DNA of 64,000 nucleotides from Actinomycetota bacterium. GTDB taxonomy: Bacteria; Actinomycetota; Acidimicrobiia; Acidimicrobiales; CADCSY01. Each line of letters starts with the position of its first letter. The stretch's first letter is position 1. The notes under the pieces were generated by a model, which saw nothing but the letters and a program-made list of their open reading frames with translations, had not been told where the DNA came from and searched no databases. Position numbers and translations under genes: made by a program. Positions 37,361-50,218 of the stretch are shown here, in pieces. The stretch lies in contig SIRW01000094.1 in NCBI GenBank assembly GCA_004366205.1, forward strand, positions 492 through 64,491, written 5' to 3'.

Positions 37361-38347
37361 TCAGCCCTCCTCCAACAGGAGCAGGAGGTCGTGCTCCTGC
37401 TCGCAGACGCGCCGGCCGATGGCGGCGAGCTCGACCGAGCGGACGGCACCGGACAGGTGCGTGGCGGCCTGGATGATGCACATGATCCCCCACTTGAGCG
37501 TGCCGAGGGTCTGCCACCAGCGGACCACCTGCGGGTCGACGGGGGTGCCGGCGTGCTCCTCGTAGGCGGCGAACAGCTCCTCGAAGGGCCCGAAGCCCCC
37601 GACGGGGTGCGGGGAGCCGAACCGCCACGCCTTGGTGCACAGCCAGCCCAGGTCCTCCATGGGGTCGCCGAGGTGGGCGATCTCCCAGTCGAGCACGGCA
37701 CGCAGGCCTTCGGGCCCGACGATGAAGTTGCCGGTGCGGAAGTCGCCGTGCACGACCGCGGTCGCCGTCGACGGCGGCCGGTGGGCCTCGAGCCAGCGGA
37801 ACCCCAGCTCGAAGGCGGGGTGGGGCTGGCCGAACCCGTCGAGCAGCTCGCGGAACTGGACCACCTGGTCCTGCTCCTCCAGGCCGGGGACGGCGTCGGT
37901 CGGGATGCGGTGGATGCGGGCCAGCACCTCGCCGAGCTGCCGGGCGAGCACGGGACGGGCTTCGGCGAACTCCTCGTCGCGCAACAGCTTGCGGGGGATC
38001 GTCTCGCCCTCGACGTGACGCACCACCATGAACGGCCGGCCCAGCGCCTCGCCGGCCGGGTCGGCGTCGGTGACCAGCACCTCGGGCACGGGCACGCCCT
38101 GGTCGGCAGCGGCGCGCAACAGCGCCGCCTCGGACGCCATGCCGCTGCCGGTCCGGGCGCCGCCGGGGCGCTCGCGCTGGAGGATGAGCGGCACCGTCGG
38201 CCCTTCGGCGGGCCGGGCCCGGAACGCCCAGGTCTCGCGCGAGGCGCCACCCGACAACCGGCGCAGCCCCTCGACCGTGACGGCGTCGCCGAGCGCCGGG
38301 GCCAGCACCGCCGCGAGCGACGTCCCCAGGTCCTCCTCGGCGGCCAT
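37361..38347 (-). CDS. phosphotransferase (APH/choline-kinase fold) family protein
   Basis: 328 aa with the catalytic region VVHGDFRTGNFIV and DWEIAHLGDPMEDL. Confidence 0.85.
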   Translation of the reverse strand: MAAEEDLGTSLAAVLAPALGDAVTVEGLRRLSGGASRETWAFRARPAEGPTVPLILQRERPGGARTGSGMASEAALLRAAADQGVPVPEVLVTDADPAGEALGRPFMVVRHVEGETIPRKLLRDEEFAEARPVLARQLGEVLARIHRIPTDAVPGLEEQDQVVQFRELLDGFGQPHPAFELGFRWLEAHRPPSTATAVVHGDFRTGNFIVGPEGLRAVLDWEIAHLGDPMEDLGWLCTKAWRFGSPHPVGGFGPFEELFAAYEEHAGTPVDPQVVRWWQTLGTLKWGIMCIIQAATHLSGAVRSVELAAIGRRVCEQEHDLLLLLEEG

Positions 38348-38357
38348 GCCGCCTGTC

Positions 38358-39377
38358 TTAGCAGTACTGGCGCAGGGTGGGGTACGGGTTGACCGGGGAA
38401 CCCCCGCCCGGGTGCATCTCGAAGTGCAGGTGCGGGGTGCCCCGGGCGTTGCCGGTGTCGCCGACGTAGCCGATGACGGTGCCGGCGCTGACCCGACCTC
38501 CGGCGCCGTAGGCCGACAGGTGCGTGCCGAAGTAGGTGATGCCGTCGTCGCCCCGCAGGTAGAAGGACAGGCCGCCGAGGCGGACGTTGCGGTGCGTGAC
38601 CGTGCCGCTCACGGGCGCCACGACGGGCGTGCCCCGGGGGGACAGGATGTCGTTGCCCATGTGCCGGCGGCCGCCCGAGCGGGGCGCCCCCCAGTCGTTG
38701 GTGAAGGCGCGGGGGCCCTGCACGGGGCAGATCCAGCGGCCGCTGCCGAGCACCTGGGGCGTGGCGCGCGCCGGTGTGGCCCGGACGGGGGCACGCGCGG
38801 TGCGGTTGGCGGCCGCCCGGCGGGCCTCCTCCGCCGCCCGCCGGCGACGCTCCTCCTCCTCACGCCGGCGCTGGAGCTCGACCTGGCGGGCGAGCTCGGC
38901 TTGCGCCGCCTGGTGGCGCTGGCGGACCACGGCCAGGGCCGCCGCCGCCTCCTGGCGGCGGGCGCGCAGCTCGTTCCGGGCGATCTCGAGGTCTTCGCGG
39001 ACCATGCGGTACTCGTCGATGGCGTCCTCGGTGCCGCCGGTGACCATCCTCGCCAGGGCGGCCGCCCGGGCCGACCTGTTGAGGTCGTGCTCGAAGAGCA
39101 CCGCCGAGTCGCCGGCGCCGCCGGCGACGTAGCTGTTCACGGCCTGCTGGCGCACCAGGTCCTCGAGCCCGGCGAGCCGCTCCTGGGTCGCCGCGGTGCG
39201 GCGCTCCAGCTCGGCGACCTCACCCTCGAGCTCGGCGAGGCGCGACTGGGCCTGGGCCAGCTGCTGGGCGACCTCGTTGGCGCGCGTGCGTGCGGCGTCC
39301 ACGGCGCTCTGGGCCGCGGCCGGACCACCGGTCAGGACGAGGGCGAGCGCGAGGATCGACGCGGTGAACCTCCGCAC
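38358..39377 (-). CDS. secreted M23 metallopeptidase with N-terminal coiled coil
   Basis: Signal-like VRRFTASILALALVLTGGPAAAQS (GTG 39377; the track start is 39446), a long coiled coil, then RHMGNDI...TPHLHFEMH (M23 HxxxD/HxH). Confidence 0.85.
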   Translation of the reverse strand: MRRFTASILALALVLTGGPAAAQSAVDAARTRANEVAQQLAQAQSRLAELEGEVAELERRTAATQERLAGLEDLVRQQAVNSYVAGGAGDSAVLFEHDLNRSARAAALARMVTGGTEDAIDEYRMVREDLEIARNELRARRQEAAAALAVVRQRHQAAQAELARQVELQRRREEEERRRRAAEEARRAAANRTARAPVRATPARATPQVLGSGRWICPVQGPRAFTNDWGAPRSGGRRHMGNDILSPRGTPVVAPVSGTVTHRNVRLGGLSFYLRGDDGITYFGTHLSAYGAGGRVSAGTVIGYVGDTGNARGTPHLHFEMHPGGGSPVNPYPTLRQYC

Positions 39378-39461
39378 GGGTACGGCAATGTACCTGTAAC
39401 CATTCCGTAAAGCGAATCGGCGGGGCGCTGCCACGGCCTGACGCATGCGGTGGTCGTCGGC

Positions 39462-40517
39462 TCAGAACCGGGTCGGGAGGCTCGTGCGGGGCCGGGCGAA
39501 GCGGCCCACGCCGCCCACCACCGGCTCGACCCGGCGCGTGGGCCGGGCGGCGACCGCGCCGCCGCCGGCCGACGCCAACCCGCCGATGAGCCGCGGCGCC
39601 GGGGCCTCGACGCCCGACAGGCGCCACAACCCGGCGGCGATCAGGCCGATGACCAGCACGGCGATGATGCGCTCGGTGGTGGTTCGGGCGACCGGCGCCG
39701 TCCGGGGGCCGCGGGGCGCGCTGCCCGGGGGGGCGGCCGCAACCGGGTCGTCGCCGTCACCGACCTCGCCGGCGCCGCCCGGAGCCGGTGCCGGCGCCCC
39801 CGGTGCGTCGAACGGCGGGGGCGCGTCGAACGCGAACCCGTCGTCGAGGAACGCCTGGCCGGGGTCGAAGCCCCCCAGGTCGTCGAAGCCGAGGTCGCCG
39901 TCGTCGAACCCGTCGCCGGGCTCGGACCCGAAGCTCGGCGCCGGCGTGAACGACTGGTCGGTCGGCTGCTCGAACGACGTCTGGAACGGCGCGGGCAGGC
40001 CCGGCGCGGGCGTGAGCACCACGTCGAAGGCGTCGCCCTGCTTGTGGCCCTCGCCGAGCTCCCAGGAGATCTGCATGCCGTCGTCGGAGAGCGCGCCCTC
40101 TACTCCCGCGGCGTCGCAGTCGGCCTCGGGCCGGCTCTCCCAGGTGCCGCCGTCGGCCGCGCCCCACTGCGTGGGCGTGGCGCAGGCCAGGATCAGCTCG
40201 GCCACCGGGCTCGAGCCCGGCGCGACGTTCAGGGTGAGGGTGCCGCCGCCGGCGTCGGGGGCGTGGAAGCGCACGGCCGCGACGGCGATCGGGCCGCTGG
40301 GGTCGTTGGCCACGTAGAGCCCGCCCTCGGGAACCGTGGGCGGAGCGGGGACCGGCGCCGGGAGCAGGCCGCTCACTGGCTGCTGGCGGGCCTTGTACCA
40401 CCAGCCGTGCCGGTCGAGCTGGGCCTCGGCGCCGGCGGGCACAGCCAGCGTGAGCGGCGCGCCGACCGTCACCAGGCCGGCGGCCAGGGCTCGCAGGAAT
40501 CGGCGCCGGCCGGGCAT
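39462..40517 (-). CDS. Tat-signal exported protein with acidic F/D/G-rich linker and C-terminal TM anchor
   Basis: MPGRRRFLRALAAGLVTVGAPLTLAVPAGAEA (twin-arginine motif), ...GDGFDDGDLGFDDLGGFDPGQAFLDDGFAFD..., ...RIIAVLVIGLIAAGLW. The ATG overlaps the stop of the MFS-NBD-NBD gene (TGATG). Confidence 0.7.
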   Translation of the reverse strand: MPGRRRFLRALAAGLVTVGAPLTLAVPAGAEAQLDRHGWWYKARQQPVSGLLPAPVPAPPTVPEGGLYVANDPSGPIAVAAVRFHAPDAGGGTLTLNVAPGSSPVAELILACATPTQWGAADGGTWESRPEADCDAAGVEGALSDDGMQISWELGEGHKQGDAFDVVLTPAPGLPAPFQTSFEQPTDQSFTPAPSFGSEPGDGFDDGDLGFDDLGGFDPGQAFLDDGFAFDAPPPFDAPGAPAPAPGGAGEVGDGDDPVAAAPPGSAPRGPRTAPVARTTTERIIAVLVIGLIAAGLWRLSGVEAPAPRLIGGLASAGGGAVAARPTRRVEPVVGGVGRFARPRTSLPTRF

Positions 40518-43500
40518 CAGCCGCCCCTCGCCCGCAGCGGCTCGCGCCGGCGCCGGCCCCGCCCGCCGCCGTCACCGCCGGCGGGGTGGGGCCGGCGGGC
40601 TGATCGGCTGGCCATGGCCTTGCTCTCGCCCGAGCGGTGGATGACGTCGAGGTCACCGCCGAGGTAGGCGGACACGACGCGCTCGTCGGCCAGCACCGCC
40701 TCGGGTTCGCCGCGGGTCACGACGGCGCCGAGCTCGAGCGCGATGATCTCGTCGGAGACGGACGTGATCAGCGGCATGTCGTGCTCGATCACGAGCAGCG
40801 AGCAGTTGGCCTCGCGCTGGATGCGCTTCAGCAGGGGCCCGAGGGCCTCGGTCTCGCGCTGGGCGATGCCCGAGGACGGCTCGTCGAGGAGCAGCACGTC
40901 GGGGTCGTGGGCGATCGCCATGGCCAGGTCGACGACGCGGCGCGAGCCGGTGGACAGCTCGGAGACGAACTTGTTGCGGAACGCCCCGAGGTGCATGAGC
41001 TCGATCAGGTCGTCCACCGTCCAGGCGACGTCGAGCTCGGACTGCTGCATGGCGGGCAGGCCGAGCAGCGCGGCCACGTGGTCGCGGGTCTCGATGTGGC
41101 GCTCGAGGCCGAGGGCGATGTTCTCGGCGACGGTGAGCGACGGGAAGATGCGGGCGTCCTGGAACGAGCGGCCGAGGCCGATGGCGGCCCGGCGGTCGGC
41201 GCCCCAGCGGGTGATGTCGACGCCCTTGAAGCGGATGCGGCCGGCATCGAGGGCGAGGTGGCCCGACAGCAGGTCGAAGATCGTGGTCTTGCCGGCGCCG
41301 TTCGGGCCGATGAGCCCGAGGATCTCGCCCTCGGCGAGCGTGAAGCTCACGTCGTTCACGGCCGTGATGCCGCCGAAGCGCTTGGTGAGGCCCTCCACCT
41401 CGAGGATCGGGGCGTGCCCGGTGGTGCCGGGCAGGGCCTTGCGGGCGCTGGCCGGGACCTTCCCGCGACCGTTCGCCGACTCGCCGTTCACCGAGCCCGC
41501 GCCCTCGAGGAAGACGGCCCGCAGGATGTCCCCGCGCTCGAGCAGCTCCTCGGTGGGTCCCGAGAACCGCACCTCGCCCTTCTCCATGAAGTAGGCGCGC
41601 TCGGCGATCGTGAGGGCCACGTTCACCGACTGCTCGACGAGGATGACGGTGCAGCCCTGGGCGTGGATGGCCCGCACCATGTCGAGGAGGAGCTCGACGA
41701 CGGTGGGGGCGAGCCCGAGCGAGAGCTCGTCGATGATCAGAAGGCGCGGGCGGGCGACGAACGCCATGCCCAGGGCGAGCTGCTGCTGCTCGCCACCGGA
41801 GAGGTTGCCGGCCATCTGGTCCCACCGCTCGCGCAGGCGGGGGAAGCGGTCGAGGACCTCCTCCACCCGGCGGTCGATCTCGGCGGGGTCCTCCTGGGTG
41901 TAGAGCCACGTGCCGGCCTTGAAGTGCTCGGCGACGGTGAGCGTGGGGAACACCGCCTTGCCGCCGGGCACCTGGATGATCCCCAGCTTGGCCGTCTGCA
42001 CGGCATCGGCGTGGGTGATGTCCCGGCCGTCGTAGAAGATGGCGCCGCCGATGGGGTCGACGGTGCCGGAGATGGCCTTCAGCAGCGTGGACTTGCCGGC
42101 GCCGTTGGTGCCGAGCAGGGCGATGATGTCGCCCTCGTAGACGTCGAGGTCGACGCCGAACAGCACCTGGACCTGGTCGTAGGCGACGTCGACGCCCTTG
42201 CAGACGAGCAGGGGCCGGCGGCCGTCGCCCCGCTCGAACTCCTCCCGCACGCGGATGGCGGTGGAGAGCGTGTTGCGGGCCTGCTCGACGTCACGGCGGA
42301 CGAAGCGGCTGGCCGAGGCCCCGATCAGGCCGGCGAGGGCCACGATGGCGGCCAGCACGGCGATGGCCCACCGGTAGCCCTGCGCCTCGCCCAGCTCGAA
42401 CAGCGGGATCGAGGCGAAGCCGCCGAGGCCGACGAAGAGGATGGCGTAGGCGTAGGCCTGGGAGCGCACCCGGGGCGGCGCGACGATCCCGACGAGCGAG
42501 AAGTAGGCGGGCTGGTAGGCGCCCACGCCCATCGACAGGAAGAACGCCATGGCCAGCGACAGCAGCGCCCAGGGGGCGATGGCCATGAGGATGAGGCCCG
42601 CGGCGAACTGCACGAACGACAGCCCGGTGATCGTGGCCAGGCGGGGGGTGCGGCCGTCCCGGGCGGCCCGGGAGGCGAGCGTGCCGCCGACGAGCAGCCC
42701 GGCGACGGTGCCGGCGCCGAAGACGAACTGCACGACGCCGCGCTCGAAGGCGCCGTAGTCGTAGACGTCCTCGAAGAACAGCGACAGGAACTGGTTGATC
42801 GCCAGGTAGCCGACGCCGAGGAAGAAGGCGCCCACCCACAGGCGGCGCAGCGTGCGCACCGAGTAGAGCTGCCGGCGGGCCTCGGCGAAGGGCACCTTGC
42901 CTTCCACCTCCTCGGCCTTGGCGGCGAGGTCGGCGTCGATGCTCTCCCCCCGCTTGGGTTCGCGCAGCTTGGCGACCAGCAGCGCCAGGAACACATACGT
43001 GGGGATGGCCAGCAGGATGAACGCGGCGCGCCAGCCGAGCGCGGCGCCGATGGCGCCGGCGACGATGCCGGACACGGCGGCGACGGGGTTGGCGAGCCGG
43101 TGGATCTGGAAGACCCGGGGGTGGACCTCGGGCTTGTAGTAGTCGCCCAGGAGGCTGGGGTGGACGACCTCGTTGATGATGCGGCCGATGCCGGCGAGGA
43201 GGCGGACGGCGAACAGCAGCAGCACCGTGGGAACCACGCCCGTGAGGATGCTCATCGTGCTCCAGAGCACGGCGGCGAACGCCGCCACCCGCACCCGGTT
43301 GGAGCGGTCGGCGATGTAGCCGACAGGCAGGGCGGCGAGCAGGATGAACACGCTGCTGATCACGCCGATGGCGCCGATGCCGGCGTCGGTCAGGTCGAAG
43401 GCGTCGCGGATCTCGGGGGTGAGCGCGGCGAAGGCGATGACGTCGAACTGGTCGACGAAGTTGAGTCCCAGCAGGATCCCGAGCGGCAGCACCGAGGCGC

Positions 43501-43597
43501 CACCGGTGAGGGCGGCGAACCGGCCGCCCCGGCCGGTGGACGGCGGGACGAGGTCGGTCGGGCCGGCAGGCGGCGGCTGCGGGGTGGTGGTGCTCAT
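40517..43597 (-). CDS. fusion protein: MFS transporter domain + LivF-like ABC ATPase + LivG-like ABC ATPase
   Basis: Continuous frame of 1026 codons from ATG 43597, which overlaps the permease stop (ATGA). MFS motif A PVGYIADRSNRVRV. NBD1: GTNGAGKSTL / LSGGEQQQLALG / LLIIDELSLGLAP. NBD2: GPNGAGKTTIFD / LSTGSRRVVDLA / VLLLDEPSSGIAQ. The track ORF 40517-45889 continues upstream only as out-of-frame overlap with the permease. Confidence 0.85.
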   Translation of the reverse strand: MSTTTPQPPPAGPTDLVPPSTGRGGRFAALTGGASVLPLGILLGLNFVDQFDVIAFAALTPEIRDAFDLTDAGIGAIGVISSVFILLAALPVGYIADRSNRVRVAAFAAVLWSTMSILTGVVPTVLLLFAVRLLAGIGRIINEVVHPSLLGDYYKPEVHPRVFQIHRLANPVAAVSGIVAGAIGAALGWRAAFILLAIPTYVFLALLVAKLREPKRGESIDADLAAKAEEVEGKVPFAEARRQLYSVRTLRRLWVGAFFLGVGYLAINQFLSLFFEDVYDYGAFERGVVQFVFGAGTVAGLLVGGTLASRAARDGRTPRLATITGLSFVQFAAGLILMAIAPWALLSLAMAFFLSMGVGAYQPAYFSLVGIVAPPRVRSQAYAYAILFVGLGGFASIPLFELGEAQGYRWAIAVLAAIVALAGLIGASASRFVRRDVEQARNTLSTAIRVREEFERGDGRRPLLVCKGVDVAYDQVQVLFGVDLDVYEGDIIALLGTNGAGKSTLLKAISGTVDPIGGAIFYDGRDITHADAVQTAKLGIIQVPGGKAVFPTLTVAEHFKAGTWLYTQEDPAEIDRRVEEVLDRFPRLRERWDQMAGNLSGGEQQQLALGMAFVARPRLLIIDELSLGLAPTVVELLLDMVRAIHAQGCTVILVEQSVNVALTIAERAYFMEKGEVRFSGPTEELLERGDILRAVFLEGAGSVNGESANGRGKVPASARKALPGTTGHAPILEVEGLTKRFGGITAVNDVSFTLAEGEILGLIGPNGAGKTTIFDLLSGHLALDAGRIRFKGVDITRWGADRRAAIGLGRSFQDARIFPSLTVAENIALGLERHIETRDHVAALLGLPAMQQSELDVAWTVDDLIELMHLGAFRNKFVSELSTGSRRVVDLAMAIAHDPDVLLLDEPSSGIAQRETEALGPLLKRIQREANCSLLVIEHDMPLITSVSDEIIALELGAVVTRGEPEAVLADERVVSAYLGGDLDVIHRSGESKAMASRSARRPHPAGGDGGGRGRRRREPLRARGG

Positions 43598-46011
43598 GCG
43601 CCCTCCTCGCGGGCGCCGGCGGTGCGGCGCAGGTGGTCGTGGTCGGCCGCGTCCTCGAGGGTCAGCTCGGCCTCGCAGACGGGGCACCAGATCGTGCGGT
43701 CGGCGAGCACGTCGAAGCTCGCGACGGTGTCGACGCTGTGCTCGGCTTCGGTGAGCACGTCCTGCTGGTCCTCGCCGGTCTCGACCCGCCGGTCCGCCAC
43801 GAGGGACGGGACGTGGATGCCGTTGCGGTTGGCGACCCAGCGCAGGGCGGCGTCGCGCACGCGCCAGATGCCCTCGGCCAGCCCACCGGGCAGGAACATG
43901 AGGATCACGATCAGGCCCGGCCCGGTGACGAGGAGCGTGAGCTCGTTGATGTTCAGCCGGTTGGCGGCGATGGTGACGCCCTGGCTGAACACCCCGCCGA
44001 GCACGGCGCCGGCGAGCGAGCTGATGCCGCCCACCACGGTGTAGGCGAACACGGCGAGGCTGTTGCCGGTGCCGTAGGTGCCGGCGTCGACCGAGCCCAG
44101 GTGGTAGGCGTTGAGCACGCCGGCGGCGGCGGCGATGAACCCGGCCACGGCGAAGGCGGCCAGCTTGGTGCGGGCGAGGTTGATGCTGTAGCTGGCCGCC
44201 GCCCGCGAGTTGTCGCGCACGGCGATGAGCACCCGGCCGCTGCGGTGGCGCCGGAACGACACGGCAGCCGCGAGGGTGAGCACCAGGAAGGCCAGGCAGA
44301 ACCAGTACCAGTTGCGGGGCTCGGCCAGGTCGATGCGCTCGAAGAGGAAGGGGCGGGTCACCCGGGCGCCGTCCTCGGGCAGCATGTGCCGGCCGAAGAA
44401 GTAGCCGCGGTTGAGCAGCCAGAACTGGGTGAAGGCGGCGAAGGCGAGGGTCGTGACCGCCAGGAACAGGCCCTGGATGCGCAGCGCCGGGATGCCCACG
44501 ATGATCGCCACGAAGGCCCCGGCGAGGCCACCGGCGACGAGCACCACGAAGAAGTCCTGGTTGTGGTTGGCGACCAGGTGCCCGGCGACGAGCGCGCCGA
44601 CGCCCACGAAGGCGAACTGCCCCAGGCTGATCTGGCCGGCCCAGCCGGTCAGCACCACGAGCGACACGCCCACCATCGCCCAGATGAGGGCGCTGGTGGC
44701 GGCGCTGACGTTCTGGACGCCGACGTAGAACGGCGCGAGCAGGAAGAGGGCGGCGACAGCGGCGACCACGGTGGTGCGCCCGGCGCGCACCTCGCGGACG
44801 TCGCGCAGCTCGGGCGGGACGGCACGCAGCTCCTTCACGGCCTGCCACGTGGCCACCCCGGTGTCCATCGCCCGGGACATCGAGCCGCGCTGGAACAGCA
44901 GGGCCAGCAGGATGACGAGCAGCATGATGGCCGCGCCCTCGGAGCTGCGGCCCGTGGCGAACACCGAGGACTGGTCGATCACCCCGATGATCATCCCGGC
45001 GCCGATGGCCACGGGCAGCCGCTCCATCCGGGCGATGACGGCTGCGGCCAGCGCGAACAGCAGGACCTCCGCGCCGGCCAGGCCCCCGAGGGGCAGGCCC
45101 ACGATGGGGCCCCGGAGGAACACCGTGATGGCGGAGAACGTGCCGGCGAGCATCCAGGCCACGGTGCCGACCCGCCGGACGGGGATGCCGAGCAGCGAGG
45201 CCCGGTCGGCGTTCTCGGCCGATGCCCGCACGGCGATGCCGAGGCGCGTGTACTTGAAGAACAGGCCGAGCAGGACGGCGCAGAGGATGACGCCGCCCAG
45301 GGCCACGAACTGGTCGCCGGTGATGGGCTGGCGGCCGAAGAAGAACCCGAAGCGGGTGAAGGGGGTGCGGATGACGTCGGGCAGCCGGTCGGCGCCGAGC
45401 CACCCGGGTGTGAGCAGCGTGAAGAACGCCAGCAGCTGGGCGATGCCGATCGTCACGACGGTGAGGATCAGGCGGGGGGCGTTCGCGAACCGCCGGACGA
45501 TGACCACGTCGATGAGCCCGCCGGCGACGGCGCCGCCGGCGATGGCGATGGGCAGGGCGAGGAAGTAGTGCACCCCGTGCACGACCATGAGGGTCATGGC
45601 GAACACCGCGGGCAGGGCGCCCATGCTGCCGGCGGCGAAGTTGATGATGCGGTTCGCCCGGTAGATGAGGATGATGCCGACCGCCATCAGCCCGTAGAGG
45701 GCGCCGAGGCACGCGCCCCAGAACATGAGCCCGTCGGGCGTGCCCCAGATCTGCTTCACGAGCCAGTAGGCGCCGAGGGCGGCCCACGCCGTGGTGACCA
45801 CCGCCCGGGTGGCGGCGCGGCTGCGGAGCTGGTCCCACGCCAGCGCCGTGAGCAGCCCGGCGACGAGCACGGGTGGGATCGACCACCACGGCGCGCTCCA
45901 GACGGTGAGGACGAGGGCGAGGAACGAGAGGCCGAGGGCCACGAAGGCGCTGAGCGCCTTGCGCTGGGGGGTGGCGGTGGCTTCGCGGGTGAGCTCCTGG
46001 AGGGCGGTCAC
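43594..46011 (-). CDS. fused LivH-LivM branched-chain-amino-acid-type (HAAT) ABC permease
   Basis: 805 aa. First half LivH-like (IILIYRANRIINFAAGSMGAL), second half LivM-like (VLTGWAGQISLGQFAFVGVGA), plus a ~70-aa acidic C-terminal tail with CPVCE. GTG start at 46011. Confidence 0.85.
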   Translation of the reverse strand: MTALQELTREATATPQRKALSAFVALGLSFLALVLTVWSAPWWSIPPVLVAGLLTALAWDQLRSRAATRAVVTTAWAALGAYWLVKQIWGTPDGLMFWGACLGALYGLMAVGIILIYRANRIINFAAGSMGALPAVFAMTLMVVHGVHYFLALPIAIAGGAVAGGLIDVVIVRRFANAPRLILTVVTIGIAQLLAFFTLLTPGWLGADRLPDVIRTPFTRFGFFFGRQPITGDQFVALGGVILCAVLLGLFFKYTRLGIAVRASAENADRASLLGIPVRRVGTVAWMLAGTFSAITVFLRGPIVGLPLGGLAGAEVLLFALAAAVIARMERLPVAIGAGMIIGVIDQSSVFATGRSSEGAAIMLLVILLALLFQRGSMSRAMDTGVATWQAVKELRAVPPELRDVREVRAGRTTVVAAVAALFLLAPFYVGVQNVSAATSALIWAMVGVSLVVLTGWAGQISLGQFAFVGVGALVAGHLVANHNQDFFVVLVAGGLAGAFVAIIVGIPALRIQGLFLAVTTLAFAAFTQFWLLNRGYFFGRHMLPEDGARVTRPFLFERIDLAEPRNWYWFCLAFLVLTLAAAVSFRRHRSGRVLIAVRDNSRAAASYSINLARTKLAAFAVAGFIAAAAGVLNAYHLGSVDAGTYGTGNSLAVFAYTVVGGISSLAGAVLGGVFSQGVTIAANRLNINELTLLVTGPGLIVILMFLPGGLAEGIWRVRDAALRWVANRNGIHVPSLVADRRVETGEDQQDVLTEAEHSVDTVASFDVLADRTIWCPVCEAELTLEDAADHDHLRRTAGAREEGA

Positions 46012-46017
46012 GACGTC

Positions 46018-47745
46018 CTACCGGGGCTTGTTGGGGAGCTGGGGCTCACCCTGGGGCCACTGCCCGAGGTCGTAGCGGCGCCCCTCGTTGAGGGCGACGT
46101 AGGAGCCCGGGCGGCCGTCGAGGCGGGACGGCGTGGTGTGGCTCCAGTAGACCTCGCGCATGTCGCTGATCCAGGTGTAGTCCCCCTCGCCGAACCGCCG
46201 GGTCTCGTGCTGGCCGCCACCGAGCGTGCCCAGGCGGCGGGCGCCCTGCTCGAAGGTGCCGGGGTTCAGGTTCGGACCGGCCATCTGGATGATGCCGCCG
46301 AGCATCTCGTAGTAGTGCCAGGCGAACAGGGCGGTGTTGTAGGGCTGGCCCGAGCGCCCGGTGGCCCGCCAGACGCGGGCGGCGTCGTTGTCCGAGAAGG
46401 GCTGGGGAGCGCCGAGCATGCTCAGGCCCCACGCCTGCTGCCACTGCGTGCCGGCCGAGCCGTAGATGCGGCCGAAGGCGTCGTGGTCCATGAGCCCGGA
46501 CCCGGCGAGGATGTACTCGGGCCGGTACTGGCGCTCCTCGGACGTGATGACCATGAAGTGGGGTGCGATGCCGTCGCAGATGCAAGAGATCGTCGTCACG
46601 TTGTTCTCCTGCATCCGGTCGATGCCGGCGTTGCGCTGCTCGTTGGCCCGGTCGATGTCCTGGGCGTACTGGTACTCGGCGACGACCCCGCTCCCGCAGT
46701 TGCGGACCATCTGCTTCAGCTCGTTCAGGACCTGCACGTTCGCCGGGTCGTCGGGCGTGATGATCCCCAGGCGCCGCTCCTGGAGGGTGAGCCGCGGGTC
46801 ACCGGCCTGCACGGCGTTGCCACCGGCGAGGCGCTTGCACCAGTACTCGGCGAGGTGCCGGGCGATCACCGAGCCGCTGATGCGGGTGTCCCACACGAAG
46901 GGGCGGCGGTTCTGCCGGAAGCTGTCGGGGAAGTGGTGGCCGCCGAGCGCGATCACCCGGTGGGCGGCCACCTCGTCGAAGAACGCGGAACCGAGCGGGG
47001 TGTTCCACAGCACGGCGAAGGGGCGGGTCTCGGCGATCAGCCGCCGGGCCTCGTCCCGCAGGCACTGGGGCTCGGGCGGCAGCAGCGGGCAGCTGCCGGT
47101 GAACTTCACCACCTCGATCTCACGCCCGTAGAACTCGTAGCGGCTGTTGAGGAACTCCAAGGCCGCCCGCTCGAACTCGTCGACCTCCTCGGCGTTCGCC
47201 GCCAGGTCCTGGCTCGCGAGGATGGCGTCGACCGCGGCGTTGGGGGCCGGCGCGTAGCGGGTGATGCGGATCTTGTCGGCGGTGACGCCCTGGTAGGTCG
47301 CGCCGCCGTTGTTGGCGCCCTCGGGGAACTTGCCGACACACGGCGGGGCGAAGGGGGTCACGTCGTGCTGGCGCCCGTCGCGGCAGTGGCTGGTGTCGCC
47401 CCCGCCGGCGGCGGCGCCGCCGCCGTCGCCGCGAGGTCCACCGCCCGCCTGGCCGCCGCTGCCCCCGGTCCCCTGCTGACGCCCCGGGGCGGCCCGCCGC
47501 TCACCGGTCTCGGGGTTCACGAACTCGCCAGTGGCCTCGTCGAGGACGAAGCCCTCGGCCTCGAGCTCGTCGTCGAAGCCGTTGGGGTCACCGGCGGCGA
47601 GCTCGTCGTCGAAGAAGCCGCCGTCGCCGCCGAAGGTCAGATCCGTCGCCTCGGGCGCCCGGGACGGGGCGATGGCGATGATCAGGAGCTGGACGACCAC
47701 GAGCGCGGCCAACGGCGCGTACCGCCTGGCCAACGACCGATTCAT
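46018..47745 (-). CDS. putative substrate-binding protein of the HAAT-type transporter, membrane-anchored, long, Cys-rich
   Basis: MNRSLARRYAPLAALVVVQLLIIAIAP (uncleaved anchor-like) from ATG 47745, preceded by GAGGGGG. An acidic/Gly-rich ~100-aa linker precedes a ~450-aa domain with 9 Cys. The family assignment rests mainly on operon position. Confidence 0.55.
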   Translation of the reverse strand: MNRSLARRYAPLAALVVVQLLIIAIAPSRAPEATDLTFGGDGGFFDDELAAGDPNGFDDELEAEGFVLDEATGEFVNPETGERRAAPGRQQGTGGSGGQAGGGPRGDGGGAAAGGGDTSHCRDGRQHDVTPFAPPCVGKFPEGANNGGATYQGVTADKIRITRYAPAPNAAVDAILASQDLAANAEEVDEFERAALEFLNSRYEFYGREIEVVKFTGSCPLLPPEPQCLRDEARRLIAETRPFAVLWNTPLGSAFFDEVAAHRVIALGGHHFPDSFRQNRRPFVWDTRISGSVIARHLAEYWCKRLAGGNAVQAGDPRLTLQERRLGIITPDDPANVQVLNELKQMVRNCGSGVVAEYQYAQDIDRANEQRNAGIDRMQENNVTTISCICDGIAPHFMVITSEERQYRPEYILAGSGLMDHDAFGRIYGSAGTQWQQAWGLSMLGAPQPFSDNDAARVWRATGRSGQPYNTALFAWHYYEMLGGIIQMAGPNLNPGTFEQGARRLGTLGGGQHETRRFGEGDYTWISDMREVYWSHTTPSRLDGRPGSYVALNEGRRYDLGQWPQGEPQLPNKPR

Positions 47746-47867
47746 GTGCACGACCCCCTCGGACGATGGTCCTGAGCTGTGTTGCGGTGGCACGGCGGGT
47801 GACGGCGGTCACGAGCCGTTCACGTCATCTATTCGCCGGACCCCGCCTGACTTCCTGCGTCCCAGGG

Positions 47868-48926
47868 TCAGGAACGGGCGCGGCCCGTGGGGCGGTCGTG
47901 CTCGTCGCGGATGTCGCCGACGAGCTCCTCCAGCAGGTCCTCGAGCGTCACGAGGCCGGCGGCCGTGCCGTCCTCGCCGGTCACCACGGCGACGTGCAGG
48001 CGGGCCCGCCGCATCGCCACGATCACCTCCCCCAGCGACCGTTCGGCGCCCACCACGAGCATCCGCCGCACCAGCCGGGGCGGGATGGCCCGGACCCGGG
48101 CGCGGTCGTCGAGGGCCAGCAGGTCCTTGGCGTGGACGTAGCCGAGCAGGTCGGCCCGGTCCCGACCCCACACGGGGATGCGGGAGTGGCCGCTCTCGAC
48201 CACGACGCGCTCGAAGCGGTCGGGCGCGGCGGTCGCCGGCAGCGACACCACCCGGTCGAGCGGCACCATCAGCGTGCCCACCGAGCGGTCGCGGAACCGC
48301 AGGGCGCCAGAAAGAAGGCGGTGCTCGACCTCTTCGAGCAGCCCTTCGCGCCGGGACGCCGCCAGCATCCGCGCGATCTCGTCGGCGGTGTGGGCGTCGA
48401 CCAGCTCCTGGCGGGGCTCGACCCCGCCGAGGCGGAGCACGCCGTTGGCCGTGGCGTTGAGCGCGCGGACCAGCGGGCGGAACACGGCCACGAACGCGGC
48501 CATGGGGAGGGCCAGCCACAGCGCCGAGCGCTCCGGCTCGGTGATGGCGATGTTCTTGGGGACCATCTCGCCGATCACCATGTGCAGGAACACCACGATC
48601 GACAGGGCCAGCACGAACGCGACCGTGTGGGTGGCGCCCGCGGGCAGGCCGAGCACGCCGAGCGGGCCCTCCAGCAGGCGGGCGACGGCGGGCTCGGCGA
48701 CGAACCCCAGGCCGAGCGACATCATGGTGATGCCGAGCTGCGACGCGGACAGCATGAGCGTCAGCTCGCGCATCGACCGCGCCGCCAACCGGGCGCGGAA
48801 GCTGCCCTCGCTCGCAGCCTGCTCGATGCGGGTGCGACGGGCGGCGACGAGCGCGAACTCGGCGGCCACGAAGAAGGCGTTCGCCAGCAGGAGCACGACG
48901 GCGGCGCCGAGGGCCAGCGCCGTCAC
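47868..48926 (-). CDS. CNNM/HlyC-CorC family transporter (DUF21 + CBS pair)
   Basis: VTALALGAAVVLLLANAFFVAAEFALVAARRTRIEQ... from GTG 48926 (GTGA overlap with the upstream paralog), with a CBS pair. The 638-aa track ORF is an out-of-frame extension. Confidence 0.85.
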   Translation of the reverse strand: MTALALGAAVVLLLANAFFVAAEFALVAARRTRIEQAASEGSFRARLAARSMRELTLMLSASQLGITMMSLGLGFVAEPAVARLLEGPLGVLGLPAGATHTVAFVLALSIVVFLHMVIGEMVPKNIAITEPERSALWLALPMAAFVAVFRPLVRALNATANGVLRLGGVEPRQELVDAHTADEIARMLAASRREGLLEEVEHRLLSGALRFRDRSVGTLMVPLDRVVSLPATAAPDRFERVVVESGHSRIPVWGRDRADLLGYVHAKDLLALDDRARVRAIPPRLVRRMLVVGAERSLGEVIVAMRRARLHVAVVTGEDGTAAGLVTLEDLLEELVGDIRDEHDRPTGRARS

Positions 48927-50218
48927 CGCTCGTCGCCGCCCCGACGTCGGTGCCCGTCCGGCGGGCCGGCGGCTGTCGCCGGCGGCGCCGTCACGCGGAC
49001 CGTCGCGATCCGCAGCCGGTCCCGGGCGAGCACCTCGAGGGTCCAGCCCTGCCAGGCCGCCTGCTCCCCTTCCTCGGGGATCCGCCCGAGGAGCGCGAGG
49101 ACGAACCCGGCGAGGGTCTCGTAGTCGCCGTCGGGGATCTCCAGCCCCGTGAGGTCGAGCACCTCGTCGAGGTGGAGCGTCCCGTCGAGCACCCAGGTGC
49201 CCGCCGGGAGGGCGGCCGTGAGCCCCGCCTCGGGCACCGGGTCGTGCTCGTCGTGGATCTCGCCGACGATCTCTTCGAGCACGTCCTCCAGGGTGATGAT
49301 GCCGGCCGTCCCCCCGTACTCGTCGACCACGACGGCGAGCTGCGTGCCCCGGCTGCGCATGTCGACGAGCAGCGACTCGAGGTCGCGCGTCTCGGGGATG
49401 GCCAGGGCGTCCTTCATGATCCGCGCCACCGGCGTCGACGACCGCTCGGCGGCGGGCACCCGGAACACGTCCTTGGCGAGCACCACGCCCACGATGTCGT
49501 CGAGCTCGTCCCGGTAGACCGGGAAGCGCGAGTACCCCGTCTCCACGGCGAGCGCCGCCAGCTCGGCGACGCTCTGCTCCGGACGGATCGCCGTGACCGA
49601 GACCCGCGGGACCATCGCCTCGTCGGCGGTCTTGTGGGCGAAGCGGAAGGTCCGGGTCAGCAGCGCCAGGGACTCGGGGTCGAGCGTGCCCTCCCGACCG
49701 GAGGACTGCACGAGCAGCTCGAGCTCCTGGAGCGTCCGCACCGACGTCAGCTCCTCGCGGGGCTCGATGCCCAGGCGCCGGCACGTGGCGTTGGCGGCGG
49801 CGTTGAAGAGGGCGATGAGCGGCCCCGCCACGAGCGTGTAGGCCCGCAGCGGCGCGGCCACGAGCAGCGACGCCCCCAGCGGGCGGGCGATCGCCCAGTT
49901 CTTGGGGACGAGCTCGCCGAGCACCATCTGCACGACCGTCGCCAGCCCCAGCGCCAGGGCGATCGACACGCCCAGGCTCGCCTGCTCGGGCACGAACGGC
50001 AGCGCCCCGATCAGCGGGTCGAGCAGCACGGCCACGGCCGGCTCGGCCACGAACCCCAGCACGAGGGAGCTGGCGGTGATGCCGAGCTGGGCGCCTGAGA
50101 GGTTGAACGAGAGGCGCTCCAGGCCCCGCAGCGCGAGGCGCGCTCGACGGTTGCCCTGGGCGGCGAGCACCTCGATGCGGTCGCGGTCGACGGCCACGAG
50201 GGCGAACTCGGCCGCCAC
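48923..50218 (-). CDS. CNNM/HlyC-CorC family transporter (DUF21 + CBS pair + CorC_HlyC)
   Basis: 431 aa from the first canonical start (GTG 50218). The DUF21 first TM helix (TIDTALGLGLVGALILANAFF) continues in frame upstream to about 50278, where the only candidate start is ATC (see findings). Confidence 0.85.
   Translation of the reverse strand: MAAEFALVAVDRDRIEVLAAQGNRRARLALRGLERLSFNLSGAQLGITASSLVLGFVAEPAVAVLLDPLIGALPFVPEQASLGVSIALALGLATVVQMVLGELVPKNWAIARPLGASLLVAAPLRAYTLVAGPLIALFNAAANATCRRLGIEPREELTSVRTLQELELLVQSSGREGTLDPESLALLTRTFRFAHKTADEAMVPRVSVTAIRPEQSVAELAALAVETGYSRFPVYRDELDDIVGVVLAKDVFRVPAAERSSTPVARIMKDALAIPETRDLESLLVDMRSRGTQLAVVVDEYGGTAGIITLEDVLEEIVGEIHDEHDPVPEAGLTAALPAGTWVLDGTLHLDEVLDLTGLEIPDGDYETLAGFVLALLGRIPEEGEQAAWQGWTLEVLARDRLRIATVRVTAPPATAAGPPDGHRRRGGDER

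Follow-up and report, generated by a model that had tools for sequence, protein, structure and literature searches.

A single polypeptide joining a complete major facilitator superfamily (MFS) module to both ATPase subunits of an ATP-binding cassette (ABC) importer is encoded in a 64,000-nt stretch of contig SIRW01000094.1 (assembly GCA_004366205.1) from an Actinomycetota bacterium of the order Acidimicrobiales. The window hereafter means this whole stretch. The gene lies on the reverse strand at 40517-43597 and specifies, in order, a Spinster-like MFS domain, a LivF-type nucleotide-binding domain (NBD1) and a LivG-type nucleotide-binding domain (NBD2). The fusion gene is real and under selection, because its coding statistics are continuous and the architecture is conserved in 120 of the 120 best homologues and in 53 of 80 genomic loci. 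With a probability of about 50%, the fusion protein is considered to be the ATPase of a complete HAAT importer dependent on a solute-binding protein (SBP). In this reading its Spinster-like MFS module would still be functional and would form an integral extra membrane subunit under geometric constraint, either as a second pathway or as a gate that senses ligand and is linked to the LivF-type NBD.

The reading frame extends from ATG 43597 to the stop codon at 40517-40519 (-), and its translation yields 1026 codons with no internal stop. Long spurious open frames are common in high-G+C DNA, and the G+C content of the window is 74%; since long open frames are cheap at this composition, the codon-position composition was checked. 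The G+C content at third codon positions (GC3) of the fusion frame is 0.92-1.00 from 43597 to about 40600, and it remains at 0.98-1.00 straight across the MFS/NBD1 junction (42200-42350) with the frame unchanged. At 43597 the frame of the upstream permease gene gives way exactly to the fusion frame, while beyond 40517 the coding signal passes to the frame of a 351-aa gene. The start codon overlaps the permease stop codon as ATGA and follows a Shine-Dalgarno-like element. A first-pass annotation of the window, made from the sequence alone, had proposed this single uninterrupted frame, its ATGA overlap with the fused LivHM permease gene and a series of motifs along the protein; translation together with the continuous GC3 confirmed the frame, and the overlap and all of the quoted motifs were read in the sequence where they had been placed. 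An internal start giving separate NBDs was rejected, as no in-frame ATG or GTG follows the Shine-Dalgarno-like GGGAGGAG at the MFS/NBD1 junction.

The fusion frame also continues open through the permease gene as an open reading frame (ORF) of 1790 aa at 40517-45889 (-). The GC3 profile showed that the part upstream of 43597 is non-coding in this frame, so the longer ORF is a high-GC artefact, which could mislead gene callers.

A Pfam scan returned the order that the first-pass annotation had predicted, MFS_1 (PF07690) and then two copies of ABC_tran (E = 2.2e-60). The MFS_1 match (140.6 bits, E = 7.8e-41; cut-off 33.4 bits) covers aa 44-395 and model positions 3-345 of 347, thus including both six-helix halves. 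The full-length AlphaFold2 model reached a predicted local distance difference test score (pLDDT) of 86.8 and a predicted TM-score (pTM) of 0.74; by a rough estimate, this pTM is above what would be expected of a chain of three independent domains. The model of the MFS part alone reached a pLDDT of 92.7 and a pTM of 0.89 with 12 long helices, and a helix at aa 430-455 is present in both models. Behind NBD2, a weak match to BCA_ABC_TP_C was found at aa 962-982 (23.7 bits, under the cut-off of 25.5). The features of the gene and its product are the following:

40517..43597 (-), MFS-LivF-LivG fusion gene, 1026 aa plus stop (translation, GC3, Pfam, 120 full-length homologues)
43601..43608 (-), Shine-Dalgarno-like GAGGAGGG, 3 nt upstream of ATG 43597 (read from the sequence)
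42314..43489 (-), MFS domain, aa 37-428, 12 transmembrane (TM) helices (Pfam, AlphaFold2, Foldseek, residue conservation)
42233..42310 (-), connector helix between TM12 and NBD1, aa 430-455, with invariant D436 (both AlphaFold2 models)
41510..42214 (-), NBD1 of the LivF/UrtE type, aa 462-696 (NCBIfam, alignment with E. coli LivF, motifs in 120/120 homologues)
41426..41509 (-), disordered inter-NBD linker, aa 697-724 (pLDDT < 50)
40658..41410 (-), NBD2 of the LivG/UrtD type, aa 730-980 (NCBIfam, alignment with E. coli LivG, Pfam; weak BCA_ABC_TP_C tail)
40520..40657 (-), Arg/Gly-rich disordered C-terminal tail, aa 981-1026 (pLDDT < 50, variable in length)

The proposal that residues ~1-450 make up a complete 12-helix MFS domain is upheld by the whole-model MFS_1 match, the 12 modelled helices and the MFS matches of the Foldseek search. 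Likewise, the succession of an MFS fold, a LivF-like NBD and a LivG-like NBD on one chain is supported by Pfam, NCBIfam, GC3, the two AlphaFold2 models, the fold search and conservation.

The MFS module resembles a known group of carriers in structure and in sequence. The top Foldseek match of the MFS-only model was human SPNS1 with lysophosphatidylcholine (LPC; 9boi, E = 2.4e-12, target TM-score (TMt) 0.81), outward-facing SPNS2 (8ex5) matched with a TMt of 0.86 and a root-mean-square deviation of 2.9 A, and SPNS2 and HnSpns were both in the top five. SV2A, MCT1, DgoT, VGLUT2 and G6PT followed the Spinster carriers, and TMt values of 0.7-0.86 were obtained for many other MFS proteins. A sequence search of the PDB with hmmsearch gave HnSpns (3.7e-17), SPNS1 (1.1e-16), SPNS2 (~5e-11) and EfpA (~1e-9), and among NCBIfam models the ACS-type ones (D-galactonate transporter) ranked first, far under their cut-off. 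The closest solved relatives of the module are thus the Spinster carriers SPNS1/2 and HnSpns, followed by ACS/SLC17-type carriers.

Motif A in the TM2-TM3 loop reads G93-Y-I-A-D97-R98-S-N-R101, with G93 kept in 119 of the 120 fused homologues and D97, R98 and R101 in all of them. Other marked residues are N46, D49 and D52 in TM1, R132, R139, E143 and H146 in TM4, and the sequence REPKRG after TM6. In the same homologues about 25 polar or charged MFS positions are kept together with motif A at 92-100%, including N46, D49, D52, R132, R139, N142, E143, H146, D152, H166 and R167. In SPNS2, D118, R119, R200 and E207 form a functional network, and mutation of R119 strongly cuts transport, while D41 and E129 have been put forward as the residues that couple protons in HnSpns (PMC10837133). 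Positions D52/R53 and R132 of the family correspond to the D118/R119/R200 network of SPNS2, with R53 aligned to R119; R132, at the place of the Spinster TM4 Arg (SPNS2 R200, HnSpns R122), is present in 120/120 homologues, and the position of the Spinster TM4 Glu is Arg139 in 118/120. Judged from these alignments, the module is Spinster-like yet fails one defining Spinster feature, the TM4 Glu.

The same module also exists without NBDs. The residue comparison of stand-alone paralogues was restricted to 13 loci at which the stop had been verified; their genes stop 1-37 codons past the domain, have no HAAT genes nearby and keep the same MFS residues, including D436 in the helix after TM12. Fused and stand-alone copies occur in the same genome (L030+L047, L032+L048), which shows that the stand-alone form is a paralogue rather than a split version of the same system. 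The whole Pfam model, the SPNS fold match and the conserved residues common to the stand-alone paralogues make the MFS look like a working carrier, as far as sequence and model allow. The genes next to the stand-alone paralogues are heterogeneous (ArgJ twice, peptidase S15, amidohydrolase, HAD, helicases) and give no consistent substrate clue, and the substrate and transport direction of the MFS are not deducible from sequence. The stand-alone MFS gene lies immediately upstream of argJ in two unrelated metagenome-assembled genomes (MAGs), at L052:11294-12454 and L056:11239-12426.

The two NBDs follow E. coli LivF and LivG motif by motif:

Walker A: E. coli LivF GANGAGKTT, NBD1 GTNGAGKST; E. 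coli LivG GPNGAGKTT, NBD2 GPNGAGKTT
Q-loop: E. coli LivF VPEGRR, NBD1 VPGGKA; E. coli LivG TFQHVR, NBD2 SFQDAR
Signature: E. coli LivF MSGGEQQ, NBD1 LSGGEQQ; E. coli LivG LAYGDQ, NBD2 LSTGSR
Walker B: E. coli LivF LLLLDEP, NBD1 LLIIDEL; E. coli LivG ILMLDEP, NBD2 VLLLDEP
Switch: E. coli LivF VEQN, NBD1 VEQS; E. coli LivG IEHDM, NBD2 IEHDM

Longer readings of the signature and Walker B are LSGGEQQQ and LLIIDE in NBD1, and LSTGSRR and LLLDEP in NBD2. NBD1 shares 39% identity with E. coli LivF in the alignment. Walker A, Walker B, signature and switch are invariant in the family, the NBD1 motifs being found in 120/120 homologues. Since the motifs match the E. coli proteins position by position and do not vary in the family, both NBDs look ATPase-competent from their sequences. 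From the same motifs we infer one consensus ATP site, consisting of Walker A, Q813 and H939 of NBD2 with the signature of NBD1, and a second site that would be degenerate in three elements, namely the Q-loop Gly and switch Gln of NBD1 and the LSTGS of NBD2. The non-canonical NBD2 signature had been pointed out in the first-pass annotation and is indeed present; it is no peculiarity of this protein, as E. coli LivG carries LAYGD at the same position and the deviation is a trait of the LivG family.

The assignment of NBD1 as LivF-like and NBD2 as LivG-like agrees with the best NCBIfam models, which were UrtE (193.7 bits) and LivF (185 bits) for NBD1, and LivG (208.2 bits) and UrtD (203.1 bits) for NBD2. 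All four scores are under the equivalog cut-offs of the LivF, LivG, UrtD and UrtE models (441, 362, 304.1 and 285.8), and the full-length protein passes the UrtE and UrtD cut-offs only through the summing of its two NBDs. Because the single NBDs are far below these cut-offs, substrate specificity is not transferable from the models. A urea transporter (UrtD/UrtE) was likewise rejected, as the single NBDs fail the cut-offs and the permease and SBP are far under the Urt cut-offs. In the fold search, the NBD pair of the full-length model could be superposed on DppD, the tandem-NBD chain of M. tuberculosis DppABCD in its ATP-bound state (8wdb_D, E = 8.1e-25, TMt 0.64), and none of the 50 listed PDB fold matches of this model combined an MFS fold and NBDs on one chain.

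Conservation of the fusion was followed in proteins and in genomes. A search of 5.8 billion proteins gave 1216 matches, the best 120 of which served for the residue-conservation counts; they are 961-1068 aa long, share 61-100% identity with the query at 92-100% coverage, and all of them are full length and contain MFS_1 and ABC_tran. The architecture is therefore present in at least 120 protein clusters, and these best homologues come from Acidimicrobiales, Microthrixaceae and other Actinomycetota MAGs. They are labelled "MFS transporter" (NCBI) or branched-chain amino acid transport ATP-binding protein (JGI). In the literature searched, no description of an MFS+LivF/LivG or MFS+ABC-NBD fusion was found, and the Saier-lab survey of Streptomyces and Myxococcus transporters lists a sensor kinase-MFS fusion family, TC 2.A.1.34, and not MFS-LivF-LivG (PMC3924187). 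The statement in the first-pass annotation that no characterised example is known is consistent with this literature and with the PDB fold matches. It had also proposed a database search for MFS+ABC_tran+ABC_tran; the protein search recovered this architecture, and the proteins themselves are already in public databases under uninformative labels.

For the genome scan, one genome per species was searched with the MFS-domain alignment as query, and 80 loci were tabulated by tblastn. MFS, NBD1 and NBD2 stand in one ORF at 53 loci, mostly in Acidimicrobiia and with MFS identity down to 32-35%. At three more the MFS is fused to NBD1 before the contig ends, six have broken frames, mostly in nanopore MAGs, 12 hold a truly stand-alone MFS gene, and six are incomplete or ambiguous. 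A cultured host with a finished chromosome, Actinospongiicola halichondriae Hal317 (Iamiaceae, Acidimicrobiales; NZ_CP171622.1), has two complete copies (L031, L036). The broken frames (L012, L017, L020, L035, L060, L069) are mostly from long-read 'MFD' assemblies, and homopolymer or indel errors are a likelier cause than pseudogene formation.

A separate search with the MFS part against 1.84 billion representatives yielded 172 clusters at E <= 1e-30 and revealed three architectures, which are MFS alone, MFS-LivF of ~700 aa with a separate LivG gene after it, and MFS-LivF-LivG of ~1000 aa. Where LivG is a separate gene, the MFS is still attached to LivF, and at the loci examined attachment was always to LivF and never to LivG, the permease or the SBP. 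In a tree of the MFS domain the stand-alone, MFS-F and MFS-F-G labels interleave, and many of the metagenomic "stand-alone" representatives are probably fragments. Averaged over the 56 complete loci, identity to the window is 48.7% for the MFS, 49.1% for LivHM, 73% and 67% for the NBDs, 36% for the SBP and 32% for the protein encoded downstream (X351, described below). The near-equal values of MFS and LivHM indicate that the MFS is as constrained as a genuine translocating permease.

The junction between the two transporter types is itself conserved. In 81 of 85 homologues, 35-37 residues separate D436 from Y473 at the first strand of NBD1 (standard deviation 1.5). The linker between the two NBDs spans anything from 39 to 77 residues, and the termini on either side also vary freely. 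The near-fixed length and predicted helical nature of the connector suggest that TM12 and NBD1 have a defined geometry relative to each other.

The partners expected of an importer surround the fusion gene:

43594..46011 (-), fused LivH+LivM permease, 805 aa, two BPD_transp_2 domains (Pfam E = 1.9e-54)
46018..47793 (-), putative, divergent LivJ-type binding protein with a TM anchor, a Gly/Asp-rich low-complexity spacer and a ~430-aa domain (translation)
39462..40517 (-), X351, 351 aa, whose ATG overlaps the fusion stop as TGATG (translation, alignment of 23 homologues)

The operon order in the window and its relatives is a protein of ~590 aa with a TM anchor at its N-terminus, the fused LivHM permease, the fusion protein and X351 (320-460 aa), and it is the same in L001, L002, L004 and L087. 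The permease contains a LivH-like part at aa 96-377 and a LivM-like part at aa 364-712 (NCBIfam), and it lies directly upstream of the fusion gene in 56 of the 56 loci in which permease, MFS and both NBDs were detected. With this permease immediately before it, the gene does occupy the livG/livF slot of a HAAT operon, as had been claimed. No further NBD gene is present in the operon, and this absence together with the translational coupling implies that the fusion protein must provide the NBDs for LivHM. Outside its BPD_transp_2 domains, the permease bears an N-terminal extension of ~90 aa with two extra hydrophobic segments and a hydrophilic C-terminal tail of ~80 aa (43594-43830 (-)) with a single CPVC motif and an acidic/His-rich end.

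The binding-protein gene keeps its position upstream of the permease across loci, and its probable start in the window is Met16 at 47748. The window protein matched Peripla_BP_6 weakly (18.5 bits, E = 0.0018, under the cut-off of 31.7), and six of 29 family members matched this domain, the best with E = 3.5e-13. X351 gave no Pfam match. In the alignment of its 23 homologues it displays a signal peptide with RRRF, a domain of ~150 aa with invariant Cys112 and Cys134, an acidic/Pro-rich spacer, a TM helix at the C-terminus and a tail with the conserved sequence GIGRFARxR. In ~40 loci a homologue was detected directly downstream of the fusion gene, and X351 may be an unrecognised accessory subunit. 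The PDB sequence search returned no solved-structure match for LivHM, the binding protein or X351.

Two complete paralogous SBP-LivHM-(MFS-LivF-LivG) operons were found in each of several genomes (L031+L036 of NZ_CP171622.1, L010+L054, L024+L055, L013+L077), which suggests diversified substrate specificity. The genes around the operon in the window are uninformative. Upstream on the same strand are two consecutive genes of the CNNM/CBS/CorC_HlyC type (Mg/Co efflux-like, 47868-50218 (-)), in the place of the aldehyde dehydrogenase found upstream in L001, L002 and L003. After X351, with gaps of 15 and 10 nt, come an M23 peptidase (38358-39446 (-)) and an APH phosphotransferase (37361-38347 (-)); the same pair also follows the operon in L001, and an M23 gene occurs less than 10 kb away in L021, L024 and L026, but the arrangement is not generally conserved.

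In the reading to which we give about an even chance, the fusion polypeptide would supply both ATPase subunits, the LivF-type NBD1 and the LivG-type NBD2, of a HAAT importer whose other parts would be the translationally coupled LivHM immediately upstream and the membrane-anchored, divergent LivJ-like binding protein. Both NBDs would pair head-to-tail under LivHM and power the import of solute delivered by the binding protein, and most of the ATP would probably be hydrolysed at the consensus site, made up of Walker A, Q813 and H939 of NBD2 with the LSGGE of NBD1. The MFS module would be a ligand-binding, alternating-access carrier placed laterally as an integral subunit of the same complex. 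It could provide a second permeation path or act as a substrate-sensing gate, its conformational cycle being linked to the LivF-type NBD.

Several observations weigh against this reading. At aa 50-53 (43438-43449 (-)) the window protein has Q50 and V53, and a 91%-identical relative has Q50 and A53, where the family has E50 in 116/120 and R53 in 113/120; D52, kept in 120/120, is thus followed by Val in the window and by Ala in the nearest relative. This looks like the paired loss of a TM1 acid/base couple, and as R53 is aligned with SPNS2 R119, the window copy may have altered or reduced activity and could be impaired as a carrier. The Arg139 in place of the proton-coupling Glu of Spinster proteins (HnSpns E129, SPNS2 E207) would mean that the coupling chemistry differs. 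At the Q-loop position of NBD1 (VPGGK, aa 542-546, 41960-41974 (-)) Gly is found in 120/120 homologues where E. coli LivF has Glu (VPEGR), which could weaken the communication from NBD1 to the transmembrane domains. The module can do without an ATPase, as its stand-alone paralogues demonstrate, which would also fit a co-expressed second transporter, and the matching divergence of MFS and LivHM may reflect phylogeny alone.

Four other explanations were considered. A passive tether or scaffold, in which a non-transporting MFS anchors the NBDs at the membrane or helps to assemble or stabilise the LivHM complex, is unlikely, even if it is the most credible of the four. The fusion does keep the NBDs permanently at the membrane, and the loss of E50 and R53 in the window copy, the missing Spinster TM4 Glu and the heterogeneous gene context of the stand-alone relatives, from which no substrate can be assigned, would all suit a module that no longer transports. 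However, 12 helices make a costly anchor, and ordinary LivG and LivF, as in the E. coli operon, need none. Motif A and the charged intramembrane residues are as in the stand-alone paralogues, which argues against a dead membrane tether, and to our knowledge motif A has no role besides conformational cycling. The MFS also diverges no faster than the true translocating permease, and the near-fixed length of the connector leans the evidence further away from a passive role. The first-pass annotation had left the choice between a hybrid or regulated transporter and a membrane tether; the conserved polar residues and the connector disfavour the latter option. Two independent transporters on one chain, serving linked solutes (e.g., uptake together with overflow or product efflux) with no mechanical coupling and fused to ensure 1:1 co-expression and co-localisation, come next and are likewise improbable. 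Stand-alone paralogues, some of them alongside a fused copy in one genome, MFS domains that function without ATPases, and an operon with the full part set of an ABC importer even without the MFS would all agree with such independence. A connector that is conserved in sequence and near-fixed in length, whereas the NBD1-NBD2 linker varies, would be unexpected for mere co-expression, as would the strict attachment to LivF and the persistence of the fusion over deep divergence, with MFS identity down to 32%.

A stronger form of coupling, in which the LivF/LivG dimer powers LivHM and is in addition mechanically coupled through the connector helix to the Spinster-like MFS, so that ATP drives or gates alternating access, is quite doubtful. 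The broader version, an MFS driven or gated by the NBD dimer either as a primary pump or with an ATPase shared with LivHM, as an analogue of ArsA-ArsB, is a shade more doubtful still. The rigid connector of near-fixed length and the whole-chain pTM would be in line with it. So would the three degenerate elements of the NBD1-centred ATP site, with their possible regulatory role, and the family-specific Gly at the NBD1 Q-loop, an element that normally contacts the ABC coupling helix. Against this, a coupling helix of the ABC type is missing from MFS domains, the same NBD grooves are required by the LivHM that is present, and the literature searched holds no precedent. The last explanation, an artefact in which a frameshift, a missed stop or a chimeric assembly joined a separate MFS gene to livF/livG, has practically no probability left. 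The high G+C content, at which long spurious ORFs are common, and the broken frames at a few related MAG loci could have raised this suspicion. However, GC3 passes the junction with no change of frame, the junction region is conserved at the protein level, and the same fusion recurs in > 120 independent protein clusters and 53 independent loci, including the finished chromosome NZ_CP171622.1; a frameshift or chimera is thereby effectively refuted.

ABC and MFS proteins are the two largest transporter superfamilies and are taught as separate mechanisms, primary and secondary active transport. The fusion covalently joins a complete, carrier-like MFS to the two motor subunits of an ABC importer that is itself complete, and dozens of actinobacterial species have retained it over deep divergence. 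Should the modules be coupled, the protein would be a natural case of cross-talk or energy sharing between two transport paradigms and a new principle by which ABC importers are regulated or translocate; if ATP itself drives or gates the MFS, it would be a two-pathway hybrid sharing the motor of an ABC importer, for which no precedent has been described. If they are not coupled, the system would still represent an unannotated HAAT subfamily with an anchored, divergent SBP and a conserved extracytoplasmic partner. The subfamily recurs in Acidimicrobiia MAGs from many independent environmental samples, and the two copies in cultured A. halichondriae Hal317 make it experimentally testable.

All parts of the system belong to known families, and the new element is their combination, an MFS module joined covalently to a HAAT ABC importer, an architecture that is present in databases but masked by its labels. 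With the HAAT importers (TC 3.A.1.4; E. coli LivJ/K-LivH-LivM-LivG-LivF, UrtABCDE) it shares two BPD_transp_2 domains and LivF/LivG-type NBDs in one operon with a putative SBP, which matches Peripla_BP_6 in part of the family, and the NBD motifs align, including the Gln switch of LivF and the non-canonical signature of LivG. Unlike them, it has LivH fused to LivM, the NBDs fused in the order F then G, and a 12-TM MFS ahead of LivF; its SBP is TM-anchored, ~590 aa long and very divergent, and the NBD1 Q-loop has Gly instead of Glu. With the Spinster carriers (TC 2.A.1.49; SPNS1/SPNS2, Hyphomonas HnSpns) the MFS module shares motif A as DRxNR, the TM4 Arg and REPxRG after TM6, and most members of the family also have the TM1 D-R pair. 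It differs in the replacement of the TM4 Glu by Arg139, in the extra acids D49/E50 (TM1) and E143 (TM4) of the family and, in the window copy, in the missing TM1 Arg, and the sequence similarity is mostly within the N-terminal half. We know of no Spinster protein fused to NBDs.

Two NBDs on one chain serving a heterodimeric importer permease are known from M. tuberculosis DppABCD (DppD) and OppABCD (OppD), and of all structures DppD and OppD gave the best matches to the modelled NBD pair of the full-length protein. These importers belong to another ABC family (PepT, with BPD_transp_1 permeases), and their ATPase chain has no membrane domain. ArsA-ArsB combines a carrier-type membrane protein able to act alone with an ATPase of two nucleotide-binding halves. 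The resemblance is a functional analogy only, with no homology: ArsB lies outside the MFS and ArsA outside the ABC ATPases, their association is non-covalent, and the ATPase is not shared with a further permease of the ABC type. In LplT-Aas, an MFS module is fused to an acyltransferase. The sensor kinase-MFS fusions (TC 2.A.1.34, PMC3924187) also join an MFS covalently to a cytoplasmic module, but their partner is a kinase, whereas that of the fusion described here is the pair of motor subunits of another transporter.

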